A stretch of DNA of 63,566 bases, the filler included, from Folioceros fuciformis (taxonomy: Eukaryota): NCBI GenBank assembly GCA_049999805.1. It is 6 parts of 5 records of this genome, joined end to end, with 100 filler letters (N's around TTAATTAATTAA, not from the genome) between each part and the next. Parts side by side here need not be neighbours in the genome. Positions count along the whole stretch, not along the records: positions 45,788 to 49,347 come from JBNGIO010006174.1; positions 49,448 to 60,480 come from JBNGIO010006180.1; positions 60,581 to 63,566 come from JBNGIO010006188.1; 3 more parts are not named here. One strand, 5' to 3'. Numbering within the stretch: the stretch's first letter is position 1; each line of letters starts with the position of its first letter. The notes under the pieces were generated by a model that saw only the letters and a program-made list of their open reading frames with translations, did no database searches and was not told the DNA's origin. Of this stretch, positions 31,136 through 63,566 are shown in pieces. Position numbers and translations under genes: made by a program.

Positions 31136-32519
31136 GCTTCCTTCTGGGCTGTCACTTCGGCAAATGTAACTCCTCCTTTTATTTTAATACTTCTTCCTTC
31201 CTGAGTTTTGTATACAATCATGCAACTAACTAAGGCTGTACTGGCTGTTTATTCCTTCGGCCCCAATCCCAAGTGGAATTGAACATTACGTAATAAATCA
31301 TTTTCTTGCTGATTCTTTCTCTCAATACAACCTGAAAAATCAGTATATTCTTTTGATCGTCTGCCGGGAGCGACTGCTCATCAACTCTATTCACATTGAA
31401 TGTGGACGCGCATCCCGTCAAATCTTTCAATTATTTTTTTTTTAAGCTTTCTTTTCTGTATGAAATAGTATGAAATGAATAAAGATGGATAGTTTCAATG
31501 CACACTTATTAATATATGTGTACTATAAAGTAAAAAATAAGAATCTCTTGACCCTATTCAATAATATATCGACACATGTCCAAAATAATCATAAACAAGA
31601 TTATATTATGTAAAGAACCTCTCGTATTTATTTTAGAAAAAAAAAAGACGGAAAAAACCATCTATCCCAACAGAGGGGGATAAACCACTAGAAGCTAACC
31701 CCCTCGAACCTAATGACTGTCAATAGCACCTAAAACAACATGGTCTAAGAGGAGAAAGGGTTTACTACCACTAGAGTTGTTAATGCCGCCTCTCTTGCCA
31801 ATGTTGTCGTCCTATGTACGGCATTATAATGTCAATGCTCGCTACTAATTGTTTCAGCTTTGATTCAATGAAAATAAGTGGATGGCATCTTTAGTTTGGA
31901 AGAGAGATAGAAAAACTCATCTATCTCCCAATGTGGGGCAAAAACCTATAGGGACTGGCCTAATTAGGAGGAAGGGGGAAATCATACTCCATAATTACCA
32001 ATGAAGCTGGCAGAAATATATCTAATTAAATTTGATTTACAAAAATTCTAAATAGTGGCCTCACGTTCTACAAGCATCTTGTGTTTCGTAGGTTCAAAAT
32101 TCATTTACTACGAACTAATTAAGATTTCTTTAAAAAGGTTGCTAATATCTTTTAGTATTCTTATATTCAAACGTGGGCAAGACCACGACTAGCCGTAAAA
32201 ATCAGGTGGCCAGGTAAAGGCCCACTCACACTATTCTTACACGAGTCTGCCTGTAAAGGTTGCCACATGACATGTGACCATCATACATACACCGCATATA
32301 GTTTAGGCTTGACCAGCTACCGGTTGTGTCTGCCACTAGGTTGTAAGGACTACGATTTAGGTACTGAAACCCTCATTTCAAATCGTGATTTGCTTACACT
32401 GGAGTCCACGAAATTGGGGCCAAATTCGCACTCCTTAGATGGATAAGGGTGATCCTAGTTGACCTCGCTTACCACCAAATGATGCGCCCTATACTACTTA
32501 CTACCAAATAATCGCATGA

Positions 32520-42289: not shown

Positions 42290-43001
42290 NNNNNNNNNNN
42301 NNNNNNNNNNNNNNNNNNNNNNNNNNNNNNNNNTTAATTAATTAANNNNNNNNNNNNNNNNNNNNNNNNNNNNNNNNNNNNNNNNNNNNAACTGGTTTCA
42401 ACCCTTTCTCCAACTGTTCATTCCTTGACATCTCTTTAACTTCACAATTAATTCTAAATTCTCTACTGTCTACAATTCACTCCTTCCTTCTTCTCTCGAT
42501 TCATTCAATCACTGTAAACATACACACAACATTCACCATAACAACGGTGCATCCAATACTTCAATCACAAGAACAATCAATCAGTTCTTCACAATTCAAT
42601 CTTTATTAACATCCACTTCAACTGGATTTCCAACTCTTACTTCACAACTTACAATCAATTCAATTCTTCAAAGTAATTTCCAAACTGTAACAAAACAAAA
42701 CAAAGAAACAAAACAGGAAGCACCAAGCTTTCCTCGGCACTCGACATCAACAGTCCGGCCCACTTCTCTTTGAAAATCTTCTCTATATACTTCCAACATC
42801 TGTACAGATTCCAACCGATACCCCACTCTAACTGCCTAACAGACTTTCTGAAATAACCTTTCAAATCTAACCTGCATAAGTACCTATTCACTGGTAATTA
42901 CTTAATCCGACCATACTCTAAACCAAAAACTCAAAATAAACCAATTTACTATTACTACATAGCCCCACTTCTAACTGTGCAGCGTCCTCGCAAACACCAA
43001 T

Positions 43002-44762
43002 TCAGAACCCAGATTTCGATGAAGAAGAAGGATCCTTCGGCACATGCACTACAATTGCCTTCAATTTCGGCTCCGAAGGTCTGACTTCAGAGACTGCCAC
43101 CCCGATCTCCTCTATGGGTTCTTCCCGTATTAGCTCCTCATCTTCCTGCTCTTCCTCACTGTTCATTTCTTCGTCATTTGGCTCATCGCCAGCTAACTTG
43201 GCCGTCAAATCTTCATTATACGCCCCCAAATCTCTGACTTGCGACTCCAATAAGGCAATTTGCGCCTCCTTCTCAGCGACTAATTCTCGCTGTGCATCCA
43301 GTTGCTGCTGCAACAGTTCTGAGTGATCCCCCGTAGTAACAATAGGTTCTTGAGAGCTAATCTCATCCAATTGACGCTTCAGGTCTTGAACTTCCTTCTT
43401 CTGCGTGGCTATCTCGGACTGAGAGATCTTCTGCTGCTGGACCAGTTCGCTAACCAATTTCTTGGACTCCGTCTCCACCTGCAACACTTTGTTCCTCTCT
43501 CTCTCCAACGCATCCCGAAGTTCCCTTCGTTCCTGTACACCAATTGCTTCCATGCTCTTAAGCAATTGCCTCTCCTTCCCCCAATTTATTTCTTTTTCGT
43601 GGAGCTGCCTCTCCATCAAATTATACCTGGCCACCGCTTCAGCCAAATTACCCTCCAACTCAGCCAATTTCTTATTCTGCTTGACTACGGTCTTTCGTTC
43701 TGAATCCAATTCTTTCTTCAAATTGGTATCCCCTTCCCATTGCATCACCGTTTGCTGTAATTGGCCGAGCTGGGCCAATATTGCCTCTTTCACACCACCC
43801 TGTTTTATACTGGTCCCTGCCAAACCAATTCGCTGATACAAGTCTACCGAAATTGGTACTTCTGTAGGTCTCTGGGTAACCTGCCAAGCCATAGTTTTTA
43901 ACCCTGCATTGGACCTTCGGTGGGATTCACTCAATCTATTACCCCCTTCCACCAGTTCCACTACATTCTCCTCTACAGGTACCACCTCCTGTTCCGAATT
44001 GGGTTGCCTGTCCTCGGTAAGAAGTTTCTCCTTCGATAATGACTTCTCCTTTTCCTGTAATGGCTGCTGCAACTGCCAACGTATCACTTCACATATATAA
44101 TTGGAACATAAAAGTGCTGGTACTCGACCCACCTTCCGCTTTGCCTCCAATTCCGCATGAATCCGCGTCGCGACATACGCTGCCCAGTTGAACACCATAC
44201 CGTCCAATGATCCAATTGCTGCAAATAATAACTTCTTCGCCATGTAGGTTGTATGACGATTCAGAGCTAGTCGCTTCTGAACGAATCGCATCCATTCGCC
44301 CAATTCCGGTGTAATCGCATCACTGGTCTTCCACCCTTGACCCTTCTCGAACGCGTCCACTCCCGATTTGAAGTGGTCCTCCTGAACAAAGTCCGTCGCC
44401 ATATCTGATCCTACCGATAACTCACTAATCGGTAGATATAACACCTTATTCAGTACTACTTCGTCAATTCCCACAATTCGTCTTCTAACGACACTACTAC
44501 CATCCTGTGGGTCGTAGTTACGCACAAACTCCTCTACTAACGGTATATCTATCGGTGGCAATTTCTCCGACCACCGTAAAAACGCATACAATCCGGCACT
44601 GCGAAAATCTTTCTGTTTCGACGGCATCCAACATAATTCTAATTTGACTGGCTCCATATTGGTCACTATAACAAACTCCAATTCTGGTAACTCGTCTTTC
44701 CTGCGCACATTACGCTGTCTATCGTCTCTCACGGCGCTTCTCTTTCCTCGTACCATCGCCAT
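43002..44762 (-). CDS. Extra 3' ORF (env-like) of a Ty3/gypsy element, with long coiled coil and acidic tail
   Basis: Same strand as the integrase and ~235 nt downstream of its stop. PLVEEFVRNYD..VRRRIVGIDEVVLNKVLYLP resembles the Athila-type env-like N-terminal motif; heptad-rich region in the C-terminal half. Confidence 0.7.
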   Translation of the reverse strand: MAMVRGKRSAVRDDRQRNVRRKDELPELEFVIVTNMEPVKLELCWMPSKQKDFRSAGLYAFLRWSEKLPPIDIPLVEEFVRNYDPQDGSSVVRRRIVGIDEVVLNKVLYLPISELSVGSDMATDFVQEDHFKSGVDAFEKGQGWKTSDAITPELGEWMRFVQKRLALNRHTTYMAKKLLFAAIGSLDGMVFNWAAYVATRIHAELEAKRKVGRVPALLCSNYICEVIRWQLQQPLQEKEKSLSKEKLLTEDRQPNSEQEVVPVEENVVELVEGGNRLSESHRRSNAGLKTMAWQVTQRPTEVPISVDLYQRIGLAGTSIKQGGVKEAILAQLGQLQQTVMQWEGDTNLKKELDSERKTVVKQNKKLAELEGNLAEAVARYNLMERQLHEKEINWGKERQLLKSMEAIGVQERRELRDALERERNKVLQVETESKKLVSELVQQQKISQSEIATQKKEVQDLKRQLDEISSQEPIVTTGDHSELLQQQLDAQRELVAEKEAQIALLESQVRDLGAYNEDLTAKLAGDEPNDEEMNSEEEQEDEELIREEPIEEIGVAVSEVRPSEPKLKAIVVHVPKDPSSSSKSGF

Positions 44763-44997
44763 TGTTACAATTCCCTGATCGTGTGCACAATATGCTCTAA
44801 TGCACCTCAACTACAGACGCACAAGACGACTACGGCCCCACTTCTAAGCGAAAAACACAACGTAAGCAAGAAAAACAATGGTGCCTTCTCCCGGCTGCGC
44901 TGCTGCTTAACCCTTAACCTAAAATTTCGGCGTCATTACTCAAGCGCCGCCATTTCTAACACCCTTCCCCCATTTAAAACGGAAACCCGTCCCGGGA

Positions 44998-45687: not shown

Positions 45688-45787
45688 NNNNNNNNNNNNN
45701 NNNNNNNNNNNNNNNNNNNNNNNNNNNNNNNTTAATTAATTAANNNNNNNNNNNNNNNNNNNNNNNNNNNNNNNNNNNNNNNNNNNN

Positions 45788-48700
45788 GAAGCCCTCAGGC
45801 TGCTGCATGAAGATCTCTTCTTCAAGTTTGCCGTGCAAGAATGCCGTTTTAACATCCATTTGATGTATGAACAAGGAGAAAAATGCCGACATGGAAAAGA
45901 GAACTCGCAGTGATTGAGACTTCACGACAGGTGAGAAGGTATCATGATAATCCAGTCCCGGCACTTGTGAAAACCCACGTGCTACTAGTCTAGCCTTATA
46001 ACGCGAGATTCTGCCGTCTGCCTTATACTTCAATTTGAATACCCACTTTGAGGTAACAATTTTCCTCCCTTGAGGCGGAGGGCAGATCTCCCATGTCTTG
46101 TTATCAATAAGGCTGTCATATTCTGACTTGATTGCTTGTTTCCACTGTCGTGCTTCAGGACCAGACACTGCTTCACGATATGGCTGAGGCTCATAGCCTA
46201 GATTTACAGTCATGTTAGCCTGCTCAACCACATCAATAACCACCTCCCCTGGTGCTCAGCCAACATGATTGGGTACCTTCCTGAAATCTTCACTTCTGTA
46301 TGGAGGAGGTCCATTGCGCAGGAGGTCTCCTGATCCTCGTGAAAGGACGTGGAAGAACAGGCTGTGGAACAGGTATGACATACTCTACTGGATCATCGAC
46401 AAACCAGTCAGGGTTTATAGCGTGATTTGGAGTAGCAGGTAAGTGTTCATCAACACCTTGTGCTGCATGATTAGGGGCAGGTGCATCATCATATGAGGAA
46501 TCAGACAGATCAGGCTGATCTGGAGGATCACCTGGATTTGGTGGAGGCAGTACAGGCTGGACAACAGCTGGAGGCTGGACGACAGGAGGAAGAACAACTG
46601 GCTGAACAGGGTTAAGAAAAGACGGATCATTGGCTGGAAAATGGACAAAGTCTGATTCACTAACCTCTTGTTCAGTGTCTACAGGAGGCTCTGACAGCTC
46701 TACACTGTCTGGATCTACAAAGTCATCTAAAGAATGCAACGGAGGTCTAAGTACAATGCTCTCATCAAAAGCAACTGTTCGTGCATGAACAACTCGACGA
46801 GTGGTGGGTTCAAATAACTTGTAGCCATGTATTCCAGATGTGTATCCTATAAAAATGTGTCTTTTGGACTTAAAGGCAAAATTTTGACGTAACTTATCAG
46901 GAATATGCGCATATGCAGTGCTACCAAAGACCTTAAGATGAGAAAGATCAAGCTTACTTCCTGTCCATGCTTCAAATGGAGTGGAACCACGAAAGGAAGA
47001 CACAGCAGACCTGTTCTGAAGGTATGTAGCCACCTGCACTGCCTCTGCCCAAAACCTGATTGAAAGCCTTCCTTGATATAGAAGTGCTCTAGCAGCATCC
47101 TGGATGGTCATGTGTCTTCGTTCAGCACGGCCATTCATATCAGAGTGATATGGAATGAGTTGGCATGTGATCCCCCTCTCTTGACAATACTCCTGAAAGG
47201 TTGTTGATAGATATTCCTTGCCGTTGTCAGATCTTATGCACTTAAGCTAATACCCTGTTTGCCTTTCTGCATACGCGAGGTACCGCTTGAAACTGTCAAA
47301 CACCTCACTTTTCCGGCGAAGAAGCTCAGTCACAGTGAAGTGAGATTTATCATCCTCAAACACGACAAAGTACTTGGCTCCTCCCCATGAGGAGACAAAC
47401 ATGGGTCCACATATGTCTGTGTGAACCAGATCTAAGATCTCTGTGGGCTTTCTTGGTTTTCCACTTCCAAAATGCGACTTGTACTGCTTGCCATGTACAC
47501 ATGCAACACAGAGATCAAGATCAGGAAGTTCACTCTCATTGAAACCAGTTACCATCTTTTCACGCAACAGTCTCCTCATAGCCTGGATGTTTGGGTGCCC
47601 TAGACGACAGTGCCACTTAAAAGCATTGCTAGCCTTAACAGTTCTAATGCTTGTCTCTGTGGAGTTCACTGCAGCACCGGGAACATCTGATGCGAAATCC
47701 AGAAGATAGAGATCAAAGAGTGGTGTCCCACGAGCGATTGTGACAGCTGGAGCAGCTAATTTGGAGATATGGCACTCTGTGCATTCAAATGTAATCCTAT
47801 ACAGGTTTGTCTTCCCTAACGCCATAGTGCTGACCAGGTTCTTTGCAAGAGCTGGTACATGAAGTGTATTCTCCAGCAATAGATGACTTCCATCCTTCAA
47901 CGTAATTTGAATGGTTCCTGAACCCTTGATTGGAATGGTAGAGTCATCTCCTAACACTACTGCTGTCTCGTGACATGTGGGAGATGGCACGTATGTTACA
48001 AATGACTTCCTCTTTGAGCACATATGATTGCTGGCTCCACTGTCTAGGAACCACTTTTGGCAACCCTTTTTGGAAGATGTAAGACAGGCTACAAGCAGCC
48101 TTGGAGTAGTAGCCCTAGCAATGTGGGCTTTAGGTGCATGTCTGCCTTTAGCAGCCTCGTCTTTTGCTCGTTTTCTACAGTCTTTAATCCAGTGTCCTAG
48201 CTTCCCACAATAATTACAATTTCCAGGTTTAGAGGATGAGCTTGACTGACCAGCAGGGGATGACGTAGACATAGAAGCCTGTCCTCTACCCCTACCGTAG
48301 CCACCTCTACCTCGACCCCTACCCCTTCCTCTACCTCTACCAGAGAATAAAGCTGTATCACTTTGTCTATGTGAGGAATGGGACGCAGGTGGGCCACCCT
48401 TCATTTGTTTTCTATGGGCCTCAAACTGCAGCAATGCCCCTACAACTTTCTGGACAGTTAGGTTAGACAAAGCAGGAGTTGTGGCTGTAGCAGGTATGAC
48501 TACTACTGATGTTTGCAGACTCGAACTGAAATGTTCATAGCTAGGTGGAAGTGAGAGCAGCAATTGGACTACTCCCCTAGATTTTGTTATGATCACTCCG
48601 TAGGATGCAAGCTTGGCCCTACAGGCTCGAAACTTGGCAACATGACTCTCAACAGAGTCGTTTTCCTTCGTACGAAGTGTCTGATACTGCAGGGTTGCTG

Positions 48701-49347
48701 CTGCCTCGGCTACCATATCCTTAGAGTCATAAGTTTCTGATAGCAATGACCAGACCTCGTTTGAAGACTGCGTCAATCGAATGTGAGGAATCATCTCCTG
48801 CGAGACAGAGGCAACTAATATGGTACATGCCTTTCTGTCCTTATACTTCCACTCTAACTCATCTTTCATTGTCCAGGGCACTTGATTCACACCTCCTGGT
48901 GTCATTACTCCGGATGGCTGACCATGTACCCTTCTTGGTACAGTTCCATCTACAACTTCCATCAAAAGTTTCTCTTCTAGGATGCAGCGCACCCTGAAGC
49001 TCCAGGCATCGAAATTACCTGGATTCAGACAGTCCTTTTCCTGCAACCGATCTGAACCCGTGTCTGGGGGAGCAGCCCCAGACATGATGCCTGCGAGCAC
49101 TAAATCTCGCTTAGTGGGGTAATGACAGGTGAGCAATCTACTCCCTAAGGCTGTTTATTTCCTGCTCTTGCTTAGCCATTGTAGATAGATCTGAAATGCA
49201 AAGATGCTCAAGGCGTTCTTGTCTTGACTGCAGATGATCAGCACGAGTGGTATACTCCAGCACTTTACTTCTAATGTTCAGGATGGAGTTCAGGATTGCA
49301 TCATGCTCTGTAAACCTTTCGACGTATGGTACCAATTTTTCTGGCGC
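45788..49347 (-). mobile_element. Ty1/copia element A (ORF0 tail, gag, protease, integrase, RT start)
   Basis: gag ATG at 49085 (NFDAWSFRV), zinc knuckle CNYCGKLGHWIKDC, WFLDSGASNHM, WHCRLGH..CVAC, HTDICGP, IRSDNG, RT YKARLVARGF/QMDVKTAFL. Order INT-RT is copia-type. Premature TAG at 47247. Confidence 0.95.
49111..49347 (-). CDS. ORF0 of copia A (3' part only, one internal TAG at 49138)
   Basis: FTEHDAILNSILNIRSKVLEYTTRADHLQSRQERLE..KQEQEINSLRE*IAHL aligns with ORF0 of copia D; ends 25 nt before the gag ATG. Confidence 0.7.
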
Positions 49348-52300
49348 NNNNNNNNNNNNNNNNNNNNNNNNNNNNNNNNNNNNNNNNNNNNTTAATTAAT
49401 TAANNNNNNNNNNNNNNNNNNNNNNNNNNNNNNNNNNNNNNNNNNNNAAGTAGCCCAGGGTATGTAATCTAAACCCGGTATCTGGGTAAAACCTTTGGCT
49501 ACTAGTCTTGCCTTATATCTCTCAATGGAACCATCACCCTTTCGTTTAATTTTAAAGACCCATTTACTCCCTACGATTTTTCTCCCTTTGGGTGGTTTAA
49601 CTAATTCCCATGTAGAATTCTTAACTAGGGAATCATACTCAGAGTCCACTGCAGCTTTCCATAAGTCCTTCTCGGGAGAAGTGAAAGCTTGTTTAAGGGT
49701 CAGTGGCTCTTCAGGATCAACTGTAGCTTTGTAAACAGATTGATAAAAATGGGAGAAAGGTGAGGAGGGATCATCAAAAGTGGTGAGGTATCCTAAAGGT
49801 GGTTCCTTCCATCCTGCAGGGCCAGAAATAACAGGTCTGGTCCTTAGGTTGTACCTTGGTGCAGGTTGCTCTACGTCGTCGACGATTGGATTCTCTGTGT
49901 GTACAATATCTTCATGTGCTGGTTCTTGTAATGAAGGAACCAGTTCCTCAATATCCGGATAGTCAGGCTCGGGAAGTTCATCATCCGGAACCACATAAAT
50001 ATCATCCAGGTGTTGAGGAATTTCCAGATCTGGATCTGGAATAGTAGGTTCGTCGCGGAGAAGATGGCTCCTCCTCCTCCTGCACAATAGGTTCAACTGG
50101 AGGAGAGGAAGGAAAAGATTGAATGCTGATAAACTCATCATCATCAAAAGATGTGGGTACAGTATTGTCGTCAGGAACATAGACAGAAGAGTAGGAGTCC
50201 ACTGGGGATAAGAGTGGAGACTCATGAAAAGTAACGCTGCGGGCATAAATGAGTTTCCTTGTAGCTGGATCAAATAACTTGTATCCTTTAATACCTTCTG
50301 TATAACCAATAAAGGTGTACTTGGCAGCCTTATCATCGAACTTCTTACGCTGTGCTTTAGGAATATAAACATATGCCGTACAGCCAAAAACCCGAAGGTG
50401 GTCGATGGAAGGCTTTCTGCCAATGAATGCTTCATAAGGTGTCATACCCCGAACTGCTGAGGTGGGTAGTCGATTGAGAAGATATGTTGCCGTTATCATT
50501 GCTTCTGCCCAATATGGTTTAACTAACCGGGCTTGGGAAAGCAAGCAACCTGTTATCTCTTGAAGACGTAGATTCTTATTTTCTGCTACGCCGTTTTGCT
50601 GAGGGGTATAAACCACCGTGAATTGCTGAGCAATACCTTGAGCTCGACAAAAATCTGTAAAAGCATTGGAGATAAACTTGCCTCCATTATCGGAACGGAG
50701 GGTTTTGAGTTTCTTCTCTGTAAGTCGTTCTGCCCACATCATGTAATCCTTGAAGTATTGAAAAGCTTCACTTTTGTGCTTGAGGATGTATGTTGTGGTA
50801 AAACGGGAATAATCATCAATAAAAGTAATAAAATATCTGCAGCCGCTGAAAGATGGTGCAGAAATTGGGCCACAAATGTCGGTGTGAACCAACTGTAAGG
50901 GTACCTTGGCCCGCTGAGGAGAATTGTTTTTGAAAGGAGCTTGATGTCTTTTAGTAAGGACACAAGCTTCACACCATGATAATGGTTCTATCTTTGGAAG
51001 GGAAGGGTGTCTATAAAGGTTTCCCTTAGACATTTGGACAAGCTTTTGGCTATTAGGATGTCCTAATCTACAATGCCAAAGTAAAGTAGTGTTGGACGTG
51101 ATAGAGTTCTGAGAAGCTAAATTAACTCTATCATGTGATGATTCTACTTGGACTGCAAGTTTATATAACCCGTCCTCTATTGTGCCTGTGCAGATATTGA
51201 GAGATTCACTAGGAGAGTAAGTGAGAAGACAACTATCTGCATCTAAAATGACTTGTATGTTATGTTCTATGCATAAACAAGTAGCTGACACTAAATTCTT
51301 ACACATGGCTGGTACATGAAGAACATTGGAAAGAACAAGGATTTGACCAGAAGAACATCTGAGTTTTATCGAACCTATACCAGAAATAGGAAGGTTATGA
51401 TCATCACCTAATAAGACACTCTGATGTCCTGTAACATAATTATAAGATTGATACAGACGTCTATTATTACAGATGTGTGCAGTGGCTCCACTATCCAAGT
51501 ACCAGTTTGGATTTGATGACTTTGATGAAGTCAAACATACAGTTAGAGCCGAAGGTGTTGTAGAAGATGTCTTCTTCACAGCTATATGAGCTCCAGGCGC
51601 AGCCTCTTTTCTAGGCTCACCATTTTTCTTCTTGTAACAGTCCTTCTCCAGGTGGTTTGGTATTCTGCACCAATTACAAATGATGCCTTTCTTCTTGGTA
51701 CCTTTAGCAGGTGTTGAAGAAGAAGTCTCTCGTCTTCGAGAGTTGTCATTGGAAGTCTGGGGTCGATATGAAGTGGAACCTCGGCCTCTGCCTCGTCCTC
51801 TTCCATTACCCCTTCCAGTGAACATCACCTGTTGCTTATTGGTTCTGGAGTGTCGCCGACTTGATTCCTCTTGCATCAATGCTCCTATGAGCTCGGCGAT
51901 GCTGAGCTTAATTTCTGCTTGTGGATTCTCATCTGCCTCACGTCTTGCATTACGGAGAACAGCATTTTGAGTTGTAACAAAAGCTCTATAAGACGGCGGT
52001 AAAGATGATAGAAGGATAACATATGCTTCCAACTCATGGACAGGAATGCCACTTGCAGCCTCAAGTTGAGATCTTGCTAGTCAGAAATTACTAATATGGC
52101 GTTCAATGGAATCGGACTCCTTCATTTGAAGGTTGCGGAAATTACAGGAGGCGGCAACAATACTCATAACATCCATGGAGGAGTAGAGCTGAGCAAGGTG
52201 AGTCCACATGTCGTGGGAGGTCTTTGCATGACCAACTTGTATCACCATTTGCTCCGAAAGTCCACTGATGATAAGGTCTTGTGCCTTCTCGTCCCTGACG

Positions 52301-52576
52301 TCCCAGGACGTTCGAAGGTGTGCTTCAAATCTTTCAGTGGGTCTGGGAAGTCTTCCTTCGACTATGTCCCAGAGATCTCGTTGTCGCAAGGCTCCTTTCA
52401 TCCGTATAGCCCAAACATAATAATTCTTTCCATTGAACCTATCCTTCTCTTTGAAGCTGTCACCATAATGATTAATCAAGGTATGATTAGAACTCCCAGA
52501 AGGATCCATCATGGGTGTATTTGGTGACGCTGAAAATTCTTCTTCAATATTAGATACTCCAGCCATAGCAGGTGAT

Positions 52577-53152
52577 CTAGAGGACTAAGCCTCGGCGGTA
52601 CAGCTTTCCATCTTCTCTATTGCAAGCTCGAAACTCCTCCCTTGCACGGTAACCTGCATCAGGAGATGATGACCTATTAGAAAGTTCCTGCACATCTTTG
52701 AATTTAGAGAGATTGGACACCCTTACCCCAAGTTCTGTTAGTTTTCTCTTGAATTCAAGATGTTGAATTGTTAGAGAAGATAATTCTCTATCTAGGTCAT
52801 GAATTTGGTGAGTTTCTATATTTTGGCCTTGTAGACAAAAGAATTTAGAAGCGTTAACGCCAGCTCTCAAATTAGGGATATGTTGAATAGCTAATTCTAA
52901 GGCCTTAACATGGATTGGGCTAAATACTTCTAGCAAATCACATCTAGCAAGCTTAATCAACTTCCCTTGGTCTGGTTTAGAAATTAGAATAGATGCAATG
53001 AAGTTAGCTATGCGAGAAGATATCTCATCTATCTCTCTTGCTATAATTTGTGAACTTGTATTGCTCTTAATCCTAACTTGATCTTGTTGTCTTGCAGGGC
53101 AATTTCTTTTCCTAATTCTAGGCCTCCTCCTATTAAAAGAAATCAAATCCAT
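52577..53152 (-). CDS. ORF0 of copia B (191 aa)
   Basis: Intact ATG-to-TAG ORF between PBS and gag; N-terminal RRRPRIRKR; heptad-like IHDLDRELSSLTIQHLEFKRKLTELGVRVSNL; stop 10 nt before the gag ATG. Confidence 0.7.
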   Translation of the reverse strand: MDLISFNRRRPRIRKRNCPARQQDQVRIKSNTSSQIIAREIDEISSRIANFIASILISKPDQGKLIKLARCDLLEVFSPIHVKALELAIQHIPNLRAGVNASKFFCLQGQNIETHQIHDLDRELSSLTIQHLEFKRKLTELGVRVSNLSKFKDVQELSNRSSSPDAGYRAREEFRACNREDGKLYRRGLVL

Positions 53153-53343
53153 AAAGAGGAGACGAAGAATTAGTGCATATGAACATTATGGGAAAAGAGA
53201 TATTTGCATGAGAAGAAAACATAAGAGAGCAGCAATTATAAAAGAGACACAATCCATCTAGCGAGGTGCTAGATTGGAAAAGATGTCTCCTAGATGCGCT
53301 CCTTAAATGCTTAAAGCTGCACTTGCATAATGAAGAGCAAGAT

Positions 53344-53355
53344 GCTCTGATACCA
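53344..53355 (-). promoter_or_regulatory. Primer binding site (tRNA-iMet) of copia B
   Basis: Minus-strand TGGTATCAGAGC directly after the LTR end CA. Confidence 0.92.
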
Positions 53356-53625
53356 TGATGAAAATCTAGCCTTGCTCTTAGATGCAAATCTTAGAATGTA
53401 ATTGAATGTAATGTAAGAAGTAAAGTACAAGCCTTTATATAGGCTAGGTAGTTGGGCGGTTACAACTATAAGTGGTTGTAACCATAAGTAGTTGTAACCG
53501 TAAGTGGTTGTAACCGTAAGTGGTTATAACCACTATAGCTAATAACTACCTAAATAACCCTAGGTAGATAATTAAAGTTAAGAGGCCCTAATGAATAGTG
53601 CCCTAAATCTAGACTTATTTCATCA
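53356..53625 (-). repeat. 5' LTR of copia B (270 bp) with internal 16-bp repeats
   Basis: Terminal inverted repeat TGATGAAA...TTTCATCA; minus-strand TATATAAA near 53435; TAAGTGGTTGTAACC(G/A) x4-5 at ~53455-53532. Confidence 0.85.
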
Positions 53626-55823
53626 AAAGTGGCCCAAGCTATTCCTCACATAGCGGTGAGTTGCCCTCGATTCCTCAGAAGACGACATCTTGGTCACATG
53701 GTTCTTCATCTACTCTTTCAAAATGATGCTAAGAGCGAACACGGTGAGAATGAGTATTGCACACTTGGTTTCAAGAGGTTTCTCTTGGGCACGCTCCAAC
53801 AAGCATCATACTATGGAGTTTTGGGGCGTAAAGCAGGAGGAGACCAAGCACTCGCAATTCATGGCTAGAGCCTCACATGGTTCTCACTTGTAAGGACTGA
53901 TAATGGCAAAGCAAGACTATGAATTCATTGCTCAAATATCATCAACGAATGGGAGTGTTAAGGGATAGTGTTGATAATATCTTTTAATTAAAGGTGCATA
54001 AATAGTGATATATAGGGGTACATAGAATAAATAATTATTAGTATCCCTTAGTTAAAGGTGTGACTTATGGTGAACCATTATGGTGTTTAATTTTAGAAAA
54101 ATAGTATCTTTTCAGTACAAGCACTTAAGTCTTTTCTTCATACACAATGATACATCCATGTAATTGAACAATATGTATTTGATATGAAACAAGCCTATTT
54201 TATAACAATTGTGCTAAGACCTACCCATAGATGGGTAGCCCACATAGAAGCTAACTTCAAAACTACCTACTGCCTTGATAATATCATGGTTTGAGATAAA
54301 AGGCGCACCCTAATACCATACTTATATACTTAAGAAAATCAGTTATTTGAATCATTAAGTTTAATAATTATGCATCATTGTATGGACATTATTGAATATG
54401 CATATCATCTAGCTACATGATATTTATATGTCTTAGGCTCATAAAAGAAAGATGGAGGAGATGGCAATACGAGAAAAAGAAAGACTTGCTCTTGTTGAAC
54501 AAGCAAACAAAGAACGTAAATTGCATAATTTACAGTTAAGGCAAGAAGCAGAAGCACGATCTAGAGCGGCAATGGAAAATTGGCAACGTTTGTTACAAAA
54601 GCGAAAGGATGACTATGACAGACGACAGCAGGTTGGGTACTTTCTTGAGTAAAACTCAAAGCACTTACTTAATGACATGCTATAGCATATAATGAAGCTT
54701 GTAACTTAATCATTATATATATATGTGCAATGAATTCAAAGGCTTCCATAAATAGAATGTAGCTCTCAAATTGGTCCTTCTCCTAAAGAAAAAAAATATA
54801 GAGCAAGATTATAAAAGGCCTTGGTTTTTTTATTTTTCTAAATTACATCATCTCATAAACAAAAGGTGTGTGTTGAAGACTACTCACTCTAAATTGAAAG
54901 GCAAGGGACATTACTAATTCATCAATAGATGTGGTCACACCCCTTAACTTAGCGTTTTGGCTGTATTACAATCCATTCATTGGTCTCCTACAATATAAAC
55001 ATCTGATACTTCCCGTGCATTTGTACCTCTTTATCCCTCATTTGTATCCCATTTGTTCTCTATTGTGGTTCATTACTCTATGTTTACATTACTTCCAGTT
55101 TGGGGAAGAACTTTGGCTAACAAAACTATGACCAAAAGTTCTTTAGTAAGAAGTTCACAAGTTATACTAAGCACAACTTCACAAGTTATACTAAGACTTT
55201 TCTTTGTAAAATCAGATGTAGTTATAAAGAGATTTGTGCAATGGGAGATATGGAAGAAAGATTCCCATGTAGCATCAAATAAACGTTACCTAGTTCAAAG
55301 AATTGGAAATTAGAATTGGTTGCCACAAACTCAGTAAGCAAAGAGTGCTAGACCTCAAGTTCTCTATAGTTATCAACGAGATCATATGATTTTCACGCCA
55401 TGTACTATAGAATACTTAAAACTAATTTGAACATAAAAATATGAAGAGATGACAACATGAGCGTCAAAGATAGTGTGGTGGCAAAACATGGAGCACAAGT
55501 CTGTCAAAGGGCTTGGGCTGTCTTTAGTCCACACTTATCCCACTATCGTCGAGACATAAGGTTTTGTTACCATGAAGGAGTGACAAAGTCTCTCGCTCTC
55601 TAGGATGGATGGAGGGTCTCCCTTTCTCGCTACCTCGACTCCTAAGCATATCCTAGTCTGTCTTGGCCTTTATGTCACAGCCATTCCAAAATAGTTGGGC
55701 TAACTTCCTAGCCAACCCACAAATAGCTCACAAATTGACCCCAAGTTAGATGCCTCTCATGGTCAATTCTTACAACAACAATCTAGGATAGTCCACTAGA
55801 TCTTGTTAGATATCAAATATTAC

Positions 55824-58800
55824 TGTTGGACCTTAACTATTGCATATGTAGGAATATGTCTAAGTTGTTTAGACCATTAATTAGTCGTATAGTGAAACGC
55901 CATGTCTCATGTACTTAAACAGCGCCACCAGTAAATTATTCTTCTTTGATGCTAACAAGCTAGCATGCTACTTTGCTTCCACTTTTGCCCACGTTTACTC
56001 ACATGGTATCAAAGACATGTTTTGCACCTTGTAGAAACTTATGAAAGATGCCAAGGCAAGGTGGCTGCTCCAAAAGGTCGCGTTGAGGTGGACCATTAAA
56101 ACATGACCTTCACGGAAGACTATCTGCCTATACTTATAGCACCTCTATATTTACAAAACAATACTCGATCCCTGTAGTCAAGCCTACCTTGCTCATTGGT
56201 CACATGGCCTCATTTTAGGTTGTGCACTCAAATCAAATCATGAGGTTGGTTGTCTTCATCCAAAATGTTGCCACAGGAGAAGACTGAACTCTGACTTGCT
56301 CCATATTCAATGAATCGAGCCACCCTCCTCCTTTGATTTAACATTTTGACCATGCACTGTGGAGGCAATCCCTAAACTTGCCTCAAAGATACCCACCTTT
56401 TGCGTTGTGGCTTGGAAGACAAGGCGATAAAGTGAGAACTAGGCGTTATATGGAATTCAAGAGTATTGCTAACAAACTAGAATTGGCACTTATCCATTTA
56501 AAGGGAGCCCTATTGCTTATTCTTTCAAATTAGGTGCTCATCTACAATAAGTTTGGCATCTTGGATTTTGAGTCAAGATCTGAACTCGAGAGGTCTGGAT
56601 CAACTTTGAATTCCCAGATCCCTTGAAGCGTATGCTGCGGAGTGGTGTAGAGGCTTAGGCGCGGGAGTGGAATCCTACTCTTAATCCCAAGCGGCGCACT
56701 TCCGCAAGCACCCCTACCACAATCTTACCCATGTTTCTACTTTGGTCCAACTATTGATGCCCCTTCACCAGATGTGGGCCTATTGATTAGTAACGACCTG
56801 ATTTCACAAAATTGACATGCCCATTTAGATGAGAAGTCATATGTTTCAAGGTTTCTGTTCAAGCGTCACAACTATTCATGAGTGCCTGAAAGGAGTTGAG
56901 GAGTTCATCATAAGAAGGGCATAAGTCCTTGTTACTCCCTCCTCTACCTGAACCCCTCAACTACCCTTCCTACACATAATGATCAGTAGTTACGTTCAAA
57001 TAGATCACATACACACATACGATACATCAATACTTAGCTGTGCTGGCTAAGCCATAGTCTCATATAGTCTACTTGAGTTTTCATGTTCACTACAGCACAA
57101 ATGACTGCCCTAATTAGTAACTTTCAGATCTAAGTTTGTTGCCTGGTGATCCCCACAATCAACCTCACCGATGGCCACCGTTAACTCTCCTTCATTTACC
57201 TCTAAATTTAGAGAAAAGGACAGGTTTAAAGGAGATGGCTTTTCTACTTAGCGTGTGAGGATGAAAGCTACCTTGTTAGCTCGCGGCATCTGGGGCACAA
57301 TTGATGGATCATACCGGAAATTGGATTCTACAACTTCTCCTGCACGATCTGCTGGCAAAATTACCAAGTAGGAACAATACAATGCAATTGTTGTGGCACT
57401 CCTTATTAGTGGACTTGATGTGGATCTGGTCCCTGATGTTGAATTTTTGAACTCAGCAAAAGAGATTTGGGATCGTCTGGAGAAGACTTATAAAGTACAA
57501 AGACAAGAGGGTAAACCCTGTAAGACAAGAGTTTTTGACCCTGAAGATGAAGGAGGGTGATAAAGTGGCAGTGCATACAAGTAGGTTCCAACACCTTTGA
57601 GCCCAACTCACCTCGTTGGCTGGAGACAAGACGTCGGAGATAGATGTTGTGGTGCAGTTTCTCACAACTCTTCCTCCTTATCAAACCTTTGTCACTAGCT
57701 AGAATGGACGCCTTTGCGCTACCTCCACGACCTCCTTATCTGGTGTAACAGCAACCGTTACCTTGGAAGAAGTAATTGGTGCGCTGTTTCAAGAGGAGCA
57801 GAGTCGTACCTTTGCTACTGGATTCCCTAAGAACAAATATCAAAAGGTGTTGGTGGCAAACTTCTTTAAGGGACGACCATTTAAGGGCAAAGGAAAGTGC
57901 ACAGGGTGCACCTCTCCTAGATAGAAGGGGGAGCTGCTAGTTTCGACTAAGAGTCCATGCAACTACAATTGGTGCGGCATGCGTGGACATTGAGCAAAAG
58001 AATGCCGGAAGGAAAAGGCTAGTGAGCCACAAAAACAACTAAAGCTAGTTGCAAGTGTTGCAGTATGCCTGGACACTGGTCAAGAGAATGCCGAAAGACA
58101 AAGGCCGGTGAGCTACAAAAAGAACTTAAGCCAACTACAAGTGTTGTAGTTAAAGACACATCAGGAGGCCCGAAAGCACCAACGAAGATTCTCACTATTT
58201 GATTGGTGAGTTCTCTGAATGATGATAGCTGTTGGTATCTCGATTTTTGAGCTACTACATATATATGTAAGGACCAAAAGCTGTTCACCACCCTACACCT
58301 GATTCATGCAAATGATAAGGTATTCCTTAGTGATGAGCAAAGAATTACAAGCTTACATATAGAAAGAAAAGGTACATATGTTTTCAAATTGAATGATGGC
58401 ATAGACCTTATGCTTGAAGACATCCTTTTCATCCAAAGTATGGCAAAAAATCTCAAGTCTATGAGCTAGCTCATGCGTCTACACATGTTTTATCTACTGG
58501 TAGACCATGAACATTGTTGATTCTATAGGCCATCTCCCCCTAACATGTGCGTGCTCAAGGGAATACCTGTCCAATATTTGTACAAGTTAAACATCACTTG
58601 TCTTTTGGCATAAGGTGCCATGCAGCATTTCACTAATTCTGCTGGTGCACTCAAACCTAGTTCTGCACAAGAAGTGATTTTGTGGCATGCACGGTTAGGA
58701 CATGTTCATAGGTCCAAGCGTATCGATATGTATGTTACAGAATGCCACAAGGAACCTCTTCCTAAGTGTTTTAAACACTTACCTATTTGTGAGTCATGCA

Positions 58801-59227
58801 TACTAGCCAAACAAAAGGAGTCTCCTTTCCAAAATGCATGTGTGCATAGAGGTACAGATACACTTGAACCCCTACACACCTCAACAAAATGACGTTCCAT
58901 AACACAATAACCAGACATGACAAGGAACATTTTGCTATGGGCATGCTTACCTTAGAGATAATGGGGTTGAAGCAGTTGTGACAACAATTTATATCCTTAG
59001 TAGAGTACTCACCAGCTCAATCCCTAATATGACTCCATTCGTGGCGCTTGGGCATAAAAAGCCTAGCCTGCTACAATGCATAGTTTTTGGATCTAGGGCT
59101 TTTGCTTATGTCCATGCGGAGAAGTGCAAGAAGCTTGATCCATGAGCACAAAGCCTTATTCACGTTGGCTATAGTGAGCACACCAAGTCTTATAAATTGT
59201 ATAATGTACAAACAAGCGACGTGGTAC
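55824..59227 (+). mobile_element. Degenerate Ty1/copia element C
   Basis: PBS-like TGGTATCAAAG at 56004 after ..CACA; gag from ~57171 (FREKDRFKGDGFST*RVRMKA); two zinc knuckles near 57970 and 58050; LWHARLGH..CESC; integrase tail to 59227. Many stops. LTR start is approximate. Confidence 0.8.
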
Positions 59228-60480
59228 TGTTAAAGGTATTATTTAGACCTAAGTATACATTGCTACTACTTAGGGTTAGTGACGGTTACATACTGTTTTA
59301 GGTTCTTAGACTATATACTTTATTTGCTTTCATGTTTTTCCTTAATGCAAGTCTACATGCTTTGTGGTCAAATGCGCCTAAGGTCGTGTGCCAATTGATC
59401 ACAAATATCAACATGGTATCAGAGCCCAGGCTCTGGTCCATCCTGGAAAAATTTGCTGTAGAAAGAAAATTTGAAAAAGAGAAATCGAAATGTCTTTCTT
59501 TGTTTTTAGGCGCTCAATGTGAGCTCTAATGTGTAGGAGGCACAATGCCTCGTAAATCAGGCTACAGGGATGTCTAGACTGACTCTGCCAAATTTGGGAG
59601 GTCAAGGGTGTCGGATCCTCGCAATCTGCTGAATTTCCAAGTGGAATTTGAGCACTTGTATTTCAAGAAAACAGTTGCACGAACCGAACAGCGAGAGCGC
59701 ATCCGGTTCTTGAAATCTTTTATCGACTCCTATAATCCAGATCCTCCTGGCCTTGATTCCCTAGCGTCTGACAAAAGATCAGATACATTAGATAAATTTA
59801 GTTGTTCAATAGGTGGTGGTATTCATGAATTTGTAAAACTTTCTCCTCATCACTTACCTCAAGATTTCGAAAATATTGACGTAATCCTCAATTCCCTCTT
59901 TATCATCAAGTCTTCTATATTCGAATTTTCTAGAAGATTAGACAGTCTCTCATCCCGTATGGATGGTTTAGAGAATCAAAAGGGGTCATATTCTTCTTCA
60001 TTGATAGAAATAGAATTAGAGGTAAAGAAACAATTCAAGGATATCACATGCATCAAGGAGCAGATTGCTACCTTGAGTGTACACTCTTCCTAGTTACCTA
60101 ACACAGTGCAGGCATGCATCATGGAAGCGGGAGCGGCTGATTCATCTACACATCGGCTACAAGAGACAGACCGACTTACCTCTGCTAATTTTGATGCCTG
60201 GAGTTTTAGGGTTAGGACAATTCTGGAGGAGAATCTCTTGATGGATGTGATGGATGGAAATGTTCCTCAACGACTTGTAGGACAGCCCTCGGGCAGGGTG
60301 TCCCCTGGTGGCAGCTCTATTAAAGAGAAATCTGATTGGAATCATAAAGATAGAAAAGCGAAGACGATTTTAGTCTCTTTTGTGTCACATGAAATGATTC
60401 CACACATCAAACTAACAAAGCATGCACATGAAGTGACAAGTGTCGAGTACGCGCGGAAGGCCGATAGGCGTAGGCAAGAA
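59228..60480 (+). mobile_element. Ty1/copia element D nested in C: LTR 59228-59413, PBS 59414-59425, ORF0, gag start
   Basis: TGTT...AACA termini followed by TGGTATCAGAGC; gag ATG at 60121 (RLQETDRLTSANFDAWSFRV), same family as element A. Confidence 0.9.
59545..60093 (+). CDS. ORF0 of copia D (182 codons, one internal TAG at 59575)
   Basis: MPRKSGYRDV*TDSAKFGRSRVSDPRNLL...DVILNSLFIIKSSIFEFSRRLDSLSSRMDGLE...IKEQIATLSVHSS*; lies between PBS and gag, in frame with gag. Confidence 0.72.
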
Positions 60481-60580
60481 NNNNNNNNNNNNNNNNNNNN
60501 NNNNNNNNNNNNNNNNNNNNNNNNTTAATTAATTAANNNNNNNNNNNNNNNNNNNNNNNNNNNNNNNNNNNNNNNNNNNN

Positions 60581-61056
60581 TGGCAAGGGAGGCCTAAGAA
60601 TGTGGGCATGAGAACTCCACCCAATCCAAATCACCGAAAGCTCACTTGCAACTGGTGTAGGAATCTAGGCCATATAGAGGCAGACTGCCGCAAGAAGGCA
60701 GCCGGCGAGTCATGGAAATCTGGATCTCCTGAAGCTAACGTGGTCACAAAATCAAAGGCGTCAAGCTCCAATATCATCTTGACTGTGTTTCTGGCACACA
60801 CCAAGTCAGACGAGCACTCCTGGTTCCTGGACTTGGGGGCATCAGCTCACATCTGTTATAATCGAGACAGCTTCGACGACTATCAACACTACCCACCTGG
60901 ACAATTCGTCCTGTTAGGCGATGAAAGCGGACTAAGCATAGCCGGTGTGGGGACAGTCAAAATTCGACTGCATGATGGTTCCCGGAAAACTTTGAAGCAG
61001 GTCCTTCACGTGCCTCAGATGGTGAAAAACCTCATGTCTGTTAGACATGTGTGTCA
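60581..61056 (+). mobile_element. Ty1/copia element E fragment (zinc knuckle and protease)
   Basis: CNWCRNLGHIEADC, WFLDLGASAHIC, VLHVPQMVKNLMSV; homology stops abruptly at 61056. Confidence 0.88.
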
Positions 61057-61315
61057 TAAAGATAAAGTACATTTATTATTAAGTAGCCAAGCATTAATTA
61101 AATAGAGATAATCCCGATATGAAACGCTAGATATAGAAAGGCAAAGTATTAGGGTCGTGACTCTAAGTATCAACCGTCACACTTCACGGGACACCACCAA
61201 CGGTTGCCCTGCACACCTTTTAAGGCCACACGGCCTAAGCTATCTACTACTCACTTCTTGAATCTCTTTCTCGCCTCTCCCGCGATCCTCCTTCGATCTT
61301 TATGGTATCAGAGCC

Positions 61316-61507
61316 ATGACCGATCCCGCCGTGCCGCCAACCTCATGCGCACTCTTCTGCGCAATTTGTGGCAACACGCAGTGCATCAAGAACCTCACAC
61401 ATTACCAGTTCTATGCGGCGATCTTAGCATTGAAGGCAGCCCTCACCAGGTTTGGATGCATGGCGGATCAATTTCTTGCAAATACTGTAGCTCACTACTA
61501 CACGTAG
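61316..61507 (+). CDS. Upstream ORF-a of copia F (63 aa, Cys cluster)
   Basis: ATG one base after the PBS (GAGCCATGA); CALFCAICGNTQCIKNLTH. Confidence 0.45.
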   Translation: MTDPAVPPTSCALFCAICGNTQCIKNLTHYQFYAAILALKAALTRFGCMADQFLANTVAHYYT

Positions 61508-61517
61508 TCCCCGCAAC

Positions 61518-62105
61518 ATGCCGAGACCAAGAGGCCAGAGGAATCGCCTGCGCTGGACAGATTCTGTTGCTGGTAGACGCGGTGAGCCAGCAAGATTACC
61601 TCCTAATCGCTGCGACAACCTTGATTGCTTTAGTCACCTGGCTAGAAAACCCTCGCGTCAGGCACGCACGATCCCTCTCTAGGCAGCATGGTTATTTTGT
61701 CCTCAGAGTCTCACTTGCAGCTCCTGCATTAGCAATCTTGAGTCAAATCCCGGTACTTCCGATTTGTTGATAGAAGACATACACCACTCCGTCAAGACAC
61801 TTGCATTTGACACAAAGAAACGACTAGCTGATCTTTCCATTAAGGTAGCAAGTACAAATAGGCACGTCACCCACCTTGCCCATCAAGTGAACACCTTGTT
61901 AAAGATCAGCAACTTGTCCCTGCGCGAAACAGCATCTCCTAAAGAAACATCTTCACGAGTTCCAGAGAAACCTGCACCTGTTCAGATCTCTACAAACACA
62001 CAACAGTCAGACTGGGAGAAAATGTTTCATGTGATGCAAGAATTTTTTCCACAACATATGGAGCAAATGCACGCCTTCGAAGCAGAGGCTGATCTCCCTC
62101 TCTAA
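61518..62105 (+). CDS. ORF0 (ORF-b) of copia F (195 codons, one internal TAG at 61680)
   Basis: MPRPRGQRNRLRW..RCDNLDCFSH..PL*AAWLFCPQSLTCSSC..LADLSIKVASTNRHVTHLAHQVNTLLKI..DLPL*; ends 12 nt before the gag ATG, in frame. Confidence 0.62.
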
Positions 62106-63566
62106 GCTTTGCTGTATATGACACACGGTGGAAGGTCGCGAGGAAACAGCAAACCAAGAGGCCCTCGTGGCAGACCTGCTGGAAGGGGTGCCGGCAGAGG
62201 GGGGCATCTTGTTGTTGATCCTCTGTCCATTAACGACGACCAGTCATTTTCAGGCCCTTCTCAAGGCAGTTCATCCACCGGTGGTATATCCAACTTGCAC
62301 GCTGCACAATTACAACACGTTGCTCAAGTTGGGTCAATAGCACAAGCCACTAGGGCAGCCTTAGCAGCTCACATAGTTGGAATAATGGGTACTCAACAAC
62401 AGGGAGGTACAGTTACTAATAACACTACTGTACACAACCTCAAGATATATTTTAAAGAACGTGATAGATTTTCAGGCACACAGTTCGATATCTGGGCACT
62501 TAGAGTCCAAACTATCTTGAAAGAAAATGATCTCTGGGGTGTTGTTTCTGGGATAGTCCCTAAACCTGCCCCCACAACTCCTCAAGCTGATAGAGATGCT
62601 TGGGCCAAACTTGATCTTCGTGCACTAGCTGTCATACAGTCTGCACTCGATGGCACAATGATGCCCCACACACGTGAGGCTGAGTCCACAAAGGCTGTCT
62701 GGGATGCACTTACACAAGTCTACCAAGTAGTAAATGGATCCTCACTTGTGAGTGCAACTCGACATTTCTACAATTGTAAAATGAGGGAGCATGACTCCGT
62801 TGAGCACCATATAATCAAGTTCATGACCTTGAGATCTAATCTTACCTCAAGTGGAATGAAGACCACAAAGATGCAGGCAGCAGTTGCTTTGCTTCTCTCT
62901 CTTCCAGAAAGTTATCGCACTTTCGTGAGCAATCAAAGCTCGTCACTTCGGCAAGCAGCACAAGCTGCCCCACCTAGAACTCAACCAGCTGTTACACTCT
63001 TGGATGTTATTGGTGCTCTTCTCGAGGAAGAGTCAACCCGCAAAGCAAGCAGGGGTACCTCCCACAAGGGAGAGTCTTCAAATAGGGCGCTCTACATGAA
63101 CAGAGGCCCAAAAAGACAGCCTCGTCAGCCTCGGCAATAATAACACAATCCGGGAGTCAGCAACTCTTACAAAAAGCGTCCTCCAGCTGGTGGTGCGAAG
63201 AAGAAGGGGCCCTGTAATTGGTGCCTCATTCCAGGTCATTGGGAAGCAGAATGCCGTAAGAAGAAGGCTGGTGAACCAAGACGAACTTCACCACCTGCTG
63301 AAGCAAACATTACACAGCGCAAGACAGCCACTCTTCTCGTTGTATGCATGGTCTCCACGGCCACCAACAAGCGTGTCTGGTACATTGACAGTGGAGCATC
63401 AGCACATTGCTGTCATGACAAACATGCTTTTGCTAAGTACCGACATGTCCCACCTGGTCAGTTTGTCTTGCTTGGAGATGACAGTGGACTACAAATTGTT
63501 GGTATAGGCACTGTCCCTATTCAGTTAGCGGATAGAACCACTTTGCATTTACTAGATGTCCTGCAT

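Follow-up and report, generated by a model that had tools for sequence, protein, structure and literature searches.

The DNA analysed here, called the window throughout, is a stretch of 63,566 nucleotides (nt) from the genome of Folioceros fuciformis (assembly GCA_049999805.1). It carries remnants of several Ty1/copia retrotransposons, and four of them, elements A, B, D and F, possess an additional open reading frame (ORF), here termed ORF0, that stands in the sense orientation directly upstream of the gag gene. Four such frames had been claimed in an earlier reading of the same DNA (the original prediction), and we found them where they had been placed. ORF0-B (52577-53152, minus strand) comprises 191 codons plus a stop codon and is the only uninterrupted ORF0. 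ORF0-D (59545-60093, plus strand) extends over 182 codons with an in-frame TAG at codon 11 (59575-59577), which leaves 171 codons open from 59578, and ORF0-F (61518-62105, plus strand), which is 195 codons long, is interrupted in frame by a TAG at codon 55 (61680-61682), so that 140 codons stay open from 61683. The description of these three as complete ORFs of 182-195 codons consequently stands for B, while D and F are broken. ORF0-A (49111-49347, minus strand) is partial because the contig ends inside it; its 5' part is lost there, and the C-terminal 69 codons run to a stop at 49140-49138, followed by eight more codons up to a second stop at 49113-49111. We consider it reasonably probable that ORF0 represents a real, fast-evolving 5' accessory coding region in at least two, and probably three, Ty1/copia families.

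The elements belong to the Ty1/copia superfamily by their type of gag, by the domain order of B and by their primer-binding site (PBS). Pfam domains of the copia-type gag (Retrotran_gag_2, DUF4219) were matched with E-values of 5e-27 in A and 6e-30 in F and weakly in the second part of the B gag; in B, the succession gag, Pol_BBD, gag_pre-integrs, rve, SH3_retrovirus and RVT_2 corresponds to gag, protease (PR), integrase (INT) and reverse transcriptase (RT). The copia identity put forward originally is thereby borne out, and so is the claim of at least three divergent gag families: the gags of A and D are 57% identical over 111 amino acids (aa), and identities between the groups amount to 33% over 607 aa (A-B), 34% over 400 aa (A-F) and 34-37% (B-F). 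The exact motif TGGTATCAGAGC, which we take to be the PBS for the initiator methionine tRNA (tRNA-iMet), stands at three sites in the 63.6 kb, one ahead of each of ORF0-B, ORF0-D and ORF0-F at a distance of 110-200 nt. With up to two mismatches permitted, seven matches were found vs 5.3 expected, and the three exact ones are the PBSs of B (53344-53355, minus strand), D (59414-59425, plus strand) and F (61303-61314, plus strand). The complete tRNA-Met is described as the primer in most copia lineages in the accessible text of the survey by Neumann et al., 2019 (PMC6317226).

All three elements with a preserved 5' end share one layout: an exact PBS, 110-200 nt, ORF0, a spacer of 10-27 nt and the gag ATG. 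Element A has the same 3' junction between ORF0 and gag. The spacers from the ORF0 stop to the gag ATG measure 10 nt in B (52567-52576, minus strand), 12 nt in F, 25 nt in A (counted from the second stop) and 27 nt in D, exactly the range that had been claimed for the four. In D and F, ORF0 and gag share one reading frame; in A and B, gag is shifted to +1. The terminal stops of ORF0-A and ORF0-D fall within about two columns of each other in a DNA alignment, upstream of the conserved GCATCATG start of gag. As a separate observation, made by eye and post hoc, each of the four gag ATGs is preceded, at a distance of 58-75 nt, by a purine motif that includes GGAG (52634-52643, 60056-60064, 49137-49145 and 62059-62064); it may reflect Glu, Gly and Arg codons.

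Each leader was shuffled 2000 times to provide a null for ORF length, and the longest leader ORF exceeded all 2000 shuffles both in B (202 codons from stop to stop) and in D (171 codons). Codon usage was scored on the basis of the gag-pol frames of the window and compared with 1000 stop-free random ORFs of the same base composition. By this measure ORF0 resembles gag-pol: the score of B was reached by none of the 1000 null ORFs, that of D by four and that of the open part of F by two, and each of the 42 noncoding control frames scored below the ORF0s. An alternative open frame in F (61345-61767) overlaps ORF0-F and is as long as its 140 codons; it scores as noncoding, 522 of 1000 null ORFs reaching its value, and it is by codon usage alone that the frame of ORF0-F is singled out. 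Taken together, ORF length, codon usage and the protein conservation between A and D described below make it probable that additional coding sequence lies between PBS and gag, in line with the original prediction.

The ORF0-A and ORF0-D proteins are 36-38% identical over 61-63 residues, and their Smith-Waterman score of 85 compares with 26.7 +/- 4.5 for shuffled sequences (z 12.8; reached in 0 of 500 shuffles), while their DNA can hardly be aligned (score reached in 6 of 300 shuffles). Judged from these alignments, the two ORF0s are clearly homologous as proteins. Identities at the three codon positions are 0.41/0.62/0.34 in ORF0 vs 0.69/0.84/0.32 in gag, and pN is 0.45 vs a pS of 0.85 in ORF0, figures derived from a protein-guided alignment that favours positions 1 and 2. 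Strong protein similarity combined with randomised third positions is the pattern expected of a translated and constrained sequence, and the same comparison indicates that ORF0 is evolving faster than gag.

The predicted proteins share an architecture. The N-terminal third has a net charge of +7 in B, +6 in D and +9 in F, in agreement with the basic N-terminal stretch noted originally. The best heptad window lies at 114-141 in B, 115-142 in D and 99-126 in F, and enrichment at heptad positions a and d was reached by 0 of 300 shuffles for both D and F, by 15 of 300 for B and by 24 of 300 for A; two gag controls displayed no enrichment (127 and 133 of 300). A coiled-coil oligomer would call for a long helix and periodicity over four or more heptads; of the heptad or coiled-coil-like C-terminal half that had been proposed, the heptad signal is clear in D and F and weaker in B and A. 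AlphaFold2 (AF2) modelled one 76-residue helix in D (94-169) with confidence values (pLDDT) of 66-93; the complex prediction for two copies of D 85-171 gave no verdict (score 0.02), and no transmembrane features were seen by eye in ORF0. Charge, models and heptad statistics thus support ORF0 products that are basic at the N-terminus and carry a long helix or heptad segment in their C-terminal part.

Several results weigh against ORF0 as a functional gene. Just one of the four copies (B) is intact, in-frame stops being present in A, D and F. The ORF length in F is within chance (55 of 2000 shuffles reach the longest frame of its leader, which is a different frame), and the codon usage of the ORF0-A fragment is not significant (250 of 1000 null ORFs). 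Default BLASTP produced no alignment between A and D, the match appearing without composition adjustment and in the shuffle tests. Among the listed sequence variants (40 of 710) there is no third-position excess, with nonsynonymous to synonymous counts of 3:1 in ORF0-B and 4:2 in ORF0-D; the gag variants among those listed likewise display no synonymous excess. AF2 rendered B on its own as helical at low confidence (pLDDT 42). Nor does ORF0 start at the first AUG that follows the PBS: six AUGs precede its ATG in B, three in D and five in F. A Pfam scan of the four ORF0s returned no family above the cut-off, and the domains known from Ogre, Retand and Athila eORFs, PF10536 (plant mobile domain), PF04195 (Transposase_28) and PF03078 (Athila ORF-1), were all absent from them at E<=1. 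No relatives emerged from word-indexed searches of 5.8 billion clusters with B and D, nor from a HMMER search of 1.84 billion representatives with an A+D profile. In the PDB, matches were limited to chance-level coiled coils (viral phosphoproteins and the L1 ORF1p coiled coil; E 0.14-0.7) and one further row with E 0.0099 that had no passing stretch, and the Atlas search was at chance level (recognition 1886 and 1405 vs a mark of 2300).

To the same side belong some of the copies found elsewhere in the genome. Their depth was read from the contigs of two DNA runs of one sample, aligned at 80% likeness, a data set that covers B and D. Unique sequence has a depth of about 12; the B region stands at 170-330, with values of 170-690 reached in the B element, and D reaches 60-150. 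A 396-nt contig of depth 87 covers B from the PBS to ORF0 codon 60 with a single difference, which indicates that the ORF0-bearing B copies are several and young. However, an abundant B-like contig of 690 nt (depth 107 in one run and 146 in the other) is devoid of most of ORF0: its flanks are 87-88% identical to B, and it joins 53084 to 52593 so that 490 nt (52594-53083) are replaced by 81 unrelated letters. A rarer B-like form skips 427 nt (52655-53081). GT..AG ends on the element strand are absent at both of these deletion joints. The depth over ORF0-B is about half of that over gag-B; judged by contig depth, about half of the B-like copies would carry ORF0. This half depth suggests that a sister subfamily has multiplied without most of ORF0, and ORF0 therefore appears not to be indispensable in cis. 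Although ORF0-B is intact, the gag-pol of B itself is not: an in-frame stop (52083-52081) interrupts it, and it changes frame once near 50002-50441. The stop is private to copy B, given that all four contigs aligned there read otherwise.

Such findings invite the explanation that the ORFs have no present function and are relics, chance frames in long leaders or captured sequences that are passively carried. The stops in three of four copies, the chance-range length of F, the thriving B sister subfamily and the lack of homologues and Pfam domains in the libraries searched all fit this explanation, as does expression, for which one presumed-RNA run offered no support (three tiny pieces aligned, all outside ORF0). 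In the old element C, described below, likewise no ORF0 could be recognised within the leader, which measures about 1.1 kb and is too decayed to score. Relics or chance frames would nevertheless have to account for ORFs in B and D longer than in any of 2000 shuffles, for gag-pol-like codon usage in three ORF0s and not in the alternative frame of F, and for a protein similarity between A and D that was kept while the DNA similarity nearly vanished and third positions were randomised. Moreover, three gag families agree in where ORF0 sits, how far its stop lies from the gag ATG, how its N-terminus is charged and where its heptads fall, and we regard an absence of function as improbable. Alternatively, ORF0 could be the N-terminal part of Gag, joined to it by a continuous frame, by readthrough or by a short intron, so that the apparent separation reflects decay or unspliced DNA. 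In D and F the two genes do share a frame with a single stop between them; D additionally offers a consensus-like splice donor (GAG/GTAAAG) at 60022 with acceptors 72-90 nt downstream that would create an open in-frame fusion, and fusions of extra ORFs (eORFs) to the polyprotein do occur in some copies, for Neumann et al., 2019 excluded these from their survey, as far as its accessible text goes (PMC6317226). Yet gag is in the +1 frame in B and also in A, the close relative of D, so that no single rule of fusion or readthrough fits even the A/D pair, and the open in-frame splice pair exists in one of the four elements. All four retain an ATG-initiated gag with its usual N-terminus behind the ORF0 stop, the stops of A and D nearly coincide in the DNA alignment, and the Pfam gag domain of A begins near the gag ATG, at residue 33. 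We deem an origin of ORF0 as the front part of Gag quite improbable. The differing frames, the stop ahead of a retained gag ATG and the restriction of a fusing intron to D instead support ORF0, on sequence grounds, as a cistron separate from gag rather than simply the gag N-terminus, in keeping with the extra gene of the original prediction.

A different issue is whether the ORF0s of the three families descend from one common ancestor, as the notion of a single homologous ORF0 would require; this notion was not supported. Protein similarity is marginal for B-D and B-F (7 of 500 shuffles each), and the shuffle tests detected none for D-F, A-B and A-F. A hidden Markov model (HMM) built from A and D ranked neither B nor F among 1275 ORFs of the window (best non-self E-value 1.2), and hhalign gave E-values of 0.22 and 0.3 between families. 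Homology of ORF0 across the three families is unproven at the level of these comparisons. The families may instead have independently acquired unrelated sequences at one permissive site, their likeness being due to convergence or composition, an explanation that concerns origin only and is compatible with coding. Independent acquisition has been proposed for most extra ORFs of plant LTR (long terminal repeat) elements, and the eORF proteins of copia elements are reported as highly heterogeneous, falling into 45 groups (PMC6317226, accessible text). What speaks for common descent is that, in a tblastn search of the whole window, the best non-self matches of B were ORF0-D and ORF0-F and that of F was B, the best matches of D being A, then one unrelated sequence and then B. 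Furthermore, the best hhalign segments of each pair fall on the same heptad helical stretch, D and F both begin with M-P-R-x-x-G in similar ATG contexts, and the ORF0s agree in length, in the pattern of charge and in where the heptads lie. The likeness between the families is clearer in architecture than in sequence, and we view separate acquisitions as a real possibility, if a somewhat unlikely one.

For ORF0 read as a first cistron, the ribosome has to reach gag. Between the ORF0 ATG and the gag ATG lie seven ATGs in B, six in D and six in F, which are not depleted relative to shuffles, and with that many undepleted ATGs in the way leaky scanning is unlikely and was rejected. Stop-codon readthrough was dismissed as a general rule on account of the gag frames, which differ between A/B and D/F, and splicing that fuses ORF0 to gag found its open in-frame, consensus-like intron in D only. 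Reinitiation of the TURBS type would involve a structured RNA element upstream that is complementary to 18S rRNA; folding of the junction (-115 to +25 around the gag AUG) yielded ordinary stabilities (z +1.1, -1.6, -0.2 and -1.2), and structured RNA there is not supported. Reinitiation after long ORFs is reported to operate over stop-restart distances of <=20-30 nt in the accessible text of one source (PMC10275272), and the ORF0-gag spacers of 10, 12, 25 and 27 nt fall within that range. We adopted reinitiation as the likeliest route to gag since the constantly short stop-to-AUG distance matches the reported window; as an inferred step, gag is probably reached by termination and reinitiation.

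We propose that ORF0 would stand by itself as the first cistron of the genomic RNA, flanked by the tRNA-iMet PBS and gag, and that its product would be about 190 aa long, rich in arginine over the N-terminal third and with a long amphipathic helix towards the C-terminus. Up to this protein architecture, the proposal rests on features of the sequence; from there on, we infer self-association, binding or import, and reinitiation. The protein may self-associate through its helix, and its basic end may bind nucleic acid or mediate nuclear import, so as to serve the RNA or particle of the element in the way that small coiled-coil and basic accessory proteins serve pararetroviruses and LINEs. The anti-silencing or movement role that was also suggested originally is a conjecture. 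Ribosomes would terminate at the ORF0 stop and start anew at the gag AUG 10-27 nt downstream to make Gag-Pol. In its strongest form, the proposal describes a plant Ty1/copia clade with a pararetrovirus-like polycistronic strategy, in which a basic coiled-coil protein comes first and Gag-Pol is coupled to it by reinitiation across a conserved 10-27-nt spacer; this we offer tentatively and hold to be rather unlikely. If true, such coupling would fix how much accessory protein is made relative to Gag, and the elements would possess a factor associated with RNA or particles that copia was not known to encode.

The virion-associated protein of caulimoviruses and the ORF2 product of badnaviruses are small proteins with a coiled coil and a basic part, encoded just upstream of the capsid or polyprotein gene. 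Like these plant pararetroviruses, the ORF0 elements would have a gene for a small coiled-coil and basic nucleic-acid-binding protein ahead of a gag-like gene, and the cistrons of their polycistronic RNA would follow one another very closely. Unlike the pararetroviral proteins, the ORF0 products are without Pfam similarity to them and carry their basic part at the N-terminus, and the Caulimoviridae are relatives of Ty3/gypsy rather than of copia. Reinitiation in cauliflower mosaic virus moreover needs a viral transactivator (PMC10275272, accessible text), which has no counterpart here. In LINE-1 and SART1, too, the first cistron codes for a coiled-coil nucleic-acid-binding protein and the second follows after a short spacer; for SART1, reinitiation is documented in the same text (PMC10275272). 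These are, however, elements of another class, ORF0 has neither an RRM nor Transposase_22, and the sole link to LINE-1 comes from the PDB search, in which the A+D profile matched the coiled coil of L1 ORF1p at chance level (E 0.44).

The closest parallels by position are found in Ty3/gypsy. Sense ORFs between the 5' LTR or PBS and gag are present in Tekay chromoviruses, including Retrosat-2 (ORF0), RIRE3/8 and the sunflower Tekay (5'aORF) (PMC11728184, PMC3485330, PMC4093653), and as ORF1 in Ogre. The original prediction had named Ogre as the main case of a 5' extra ORF; this is right for Ogre, and the Tekay elements Retrosat-2 and RIRE3/8 have to be added (PMC11728184, PMC3485330). Like ORF0, these 5' ORFs are described, in the accessible parts of these reports, as encoding domain-free, family-divergent proteins (PMC11728184, PMC3485330, PMC7264820) with predicted nuclear-localisation-type basic stretches, helices and disorder, and as occurring in some subgroups while missing from sister groups. 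ORF0 differs from them in its host, a Ty1/copia element with the order PR-INT-RT; in its size, 182-195 codons as against about 400 aa in the sunflower Tekay according to the same reports; and, compared by description only, from the Ogre-type eORFs in being without the Pfam plant mobile domain or Transposase_28.

Within plant LTR elements at large, extra ORFs have been reported upstream or downstream of gag-pol, most frequently between pol and the 3' LTR (PMC7264820, accessible text). Neumann et al., 2019 searched for ORFs of >=250 codons, detected them in 582 copia elements and sorted the highly heterogeneous eORF proteins into 45 groups; in its accessible text, the env-like eORF-3'F of SIRE (Sirevirus) is the only extra ORF that is singled out and called typical of a plant Ty1/copia lineage (PMC6317226). 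ORF0 resembles eORF-3'F as an extra sense ORF of heterogeneous sequence in a copia element (PMC6317226, likewise), and it is set apart by its place upstream of gag, eORF-3'F lying downstream of pol and often having transmembrane features. We encountered no sense ORF between PBS and gag of a Ty1/copia element in the literature searched, and the supplementary tables of PMC6317226 may contain such eORFs. With 182-195 codons, the ORF0s are below the 250-codon criterion given in the accessible text of that survey and would have escaped it (PMC6317226).

Extra genes are the main departure of LTR retrotransposons from the gag-pol plan. A sense ORF before gag is already known for Ty3/gypsy, while the literature searched describes copia as structurally uniform save for the 3' ORF of SIRE. 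A 5' ORF in three divergent copia families would, if true, mean that such ORFs were missed below 250-codon survey cut-offs, that a second superfamily has evolved a 5' accessory protein and that a compact natural case exists of a plant ribosome reaching a downstream gag after a 190-codon ORF. Should the ORFs prove to be relics, the finding would be an annotation note only.

The remaining features of the elements are as follows. In B, the 5' LTR (53356-53595, minus strand; outer end approximate) has its inner end at the PBS, and a depth of 691 stops at a unique contig with zero differences that begins at 53596; gag, PR, INT and the start of RT occupy 49451-52566 (minus strand) and are cut by the contig end. 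Element D, with its 5' LTR at 59230-59413 (plus strand; start approximate, a unique contig ending at 59257) and gag at 60121-60480 (plus strand, cut by the contig end), is inserted into the integrase of element C. The LTRs are short (about 190-240 bp). Gag, PR and INT of A lie at 47247-49085 (minus strand). The gag of F (62118-63140, plus strand) has about 115 extra N-terminal residues (62118-62460), first Arg/Gly-rich and then Gln/Ala-rich, before DUF4219/Retrotran_gag_2; F possesses both ORF0 and this extended gag. Element C (57150-59230, plus strand) is an old single-copy copia element with decayed gag, PR and INT, its gag beginning at about 57150, and a PBS-like site with two mismatches is located at 56004-56015. 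Fragment E (60608-61105, plus strand) preserves the zinc knuckle and protease portion of another copia element; it runs from the contig start to the point where the LTR of F begins, which indicates a nested insertion.

The window is a pseudo-scaffold of unplaced contigs in which adjacency across linkers or gaps is biologically meaningless. It contains five N44-TTAATTAATTAA-N44 linkers with stops in six frames (19688-19787, 42290-42389, 45688-45787, 49348-49447 and 60481-60580) and two 10-N gaps (2059-2068 and 24813-24822). Element A lies on the contig at 45788-49347, elements B, C and D on that at 49448-60480, and fragment E and element F on that at 60581-63566. Every copia element here is incomplete, cut by a contig end or a nested insertion, and for this reason the lack of an LTR pair with a target-site duplication in 40000-63566 is an effect of the assembly rather than a property of the elements. 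Rfam had no match in 49448-63566.

Elsewhere in the window, land-plant genes encode a PPR protein with an E motif, a vacuolar sorting receptor, a LysM receptor kinase, an S-adenosylmethionine (SAM) decarboxylase and an ABC transporter. The last of these is full-size (27164-31183, minus strand), with two ABC_membrane and two ABC_tran domains encoded in one continuous frame of 1339 codons, a lack of introns that is unusual in a plant gene of such size. A 602-codon open frame at 43002-44810 (minus strand) has a below-cut-off match to Transposase_32 (E 4e-6, 27 bits vs a cut-off of 45), a putative plant transposon protein related to Athila ORF1. Finally, a stretch of 52 nt at 55529-55580 reaches a contig depth of about 1190 in run X1 and turns up in the small runs X4 and X5 as well; it has loose ends on both flanks, is not a tRNA and has no Rfam match, and a very abundant repeat is the probable source of this fragment.

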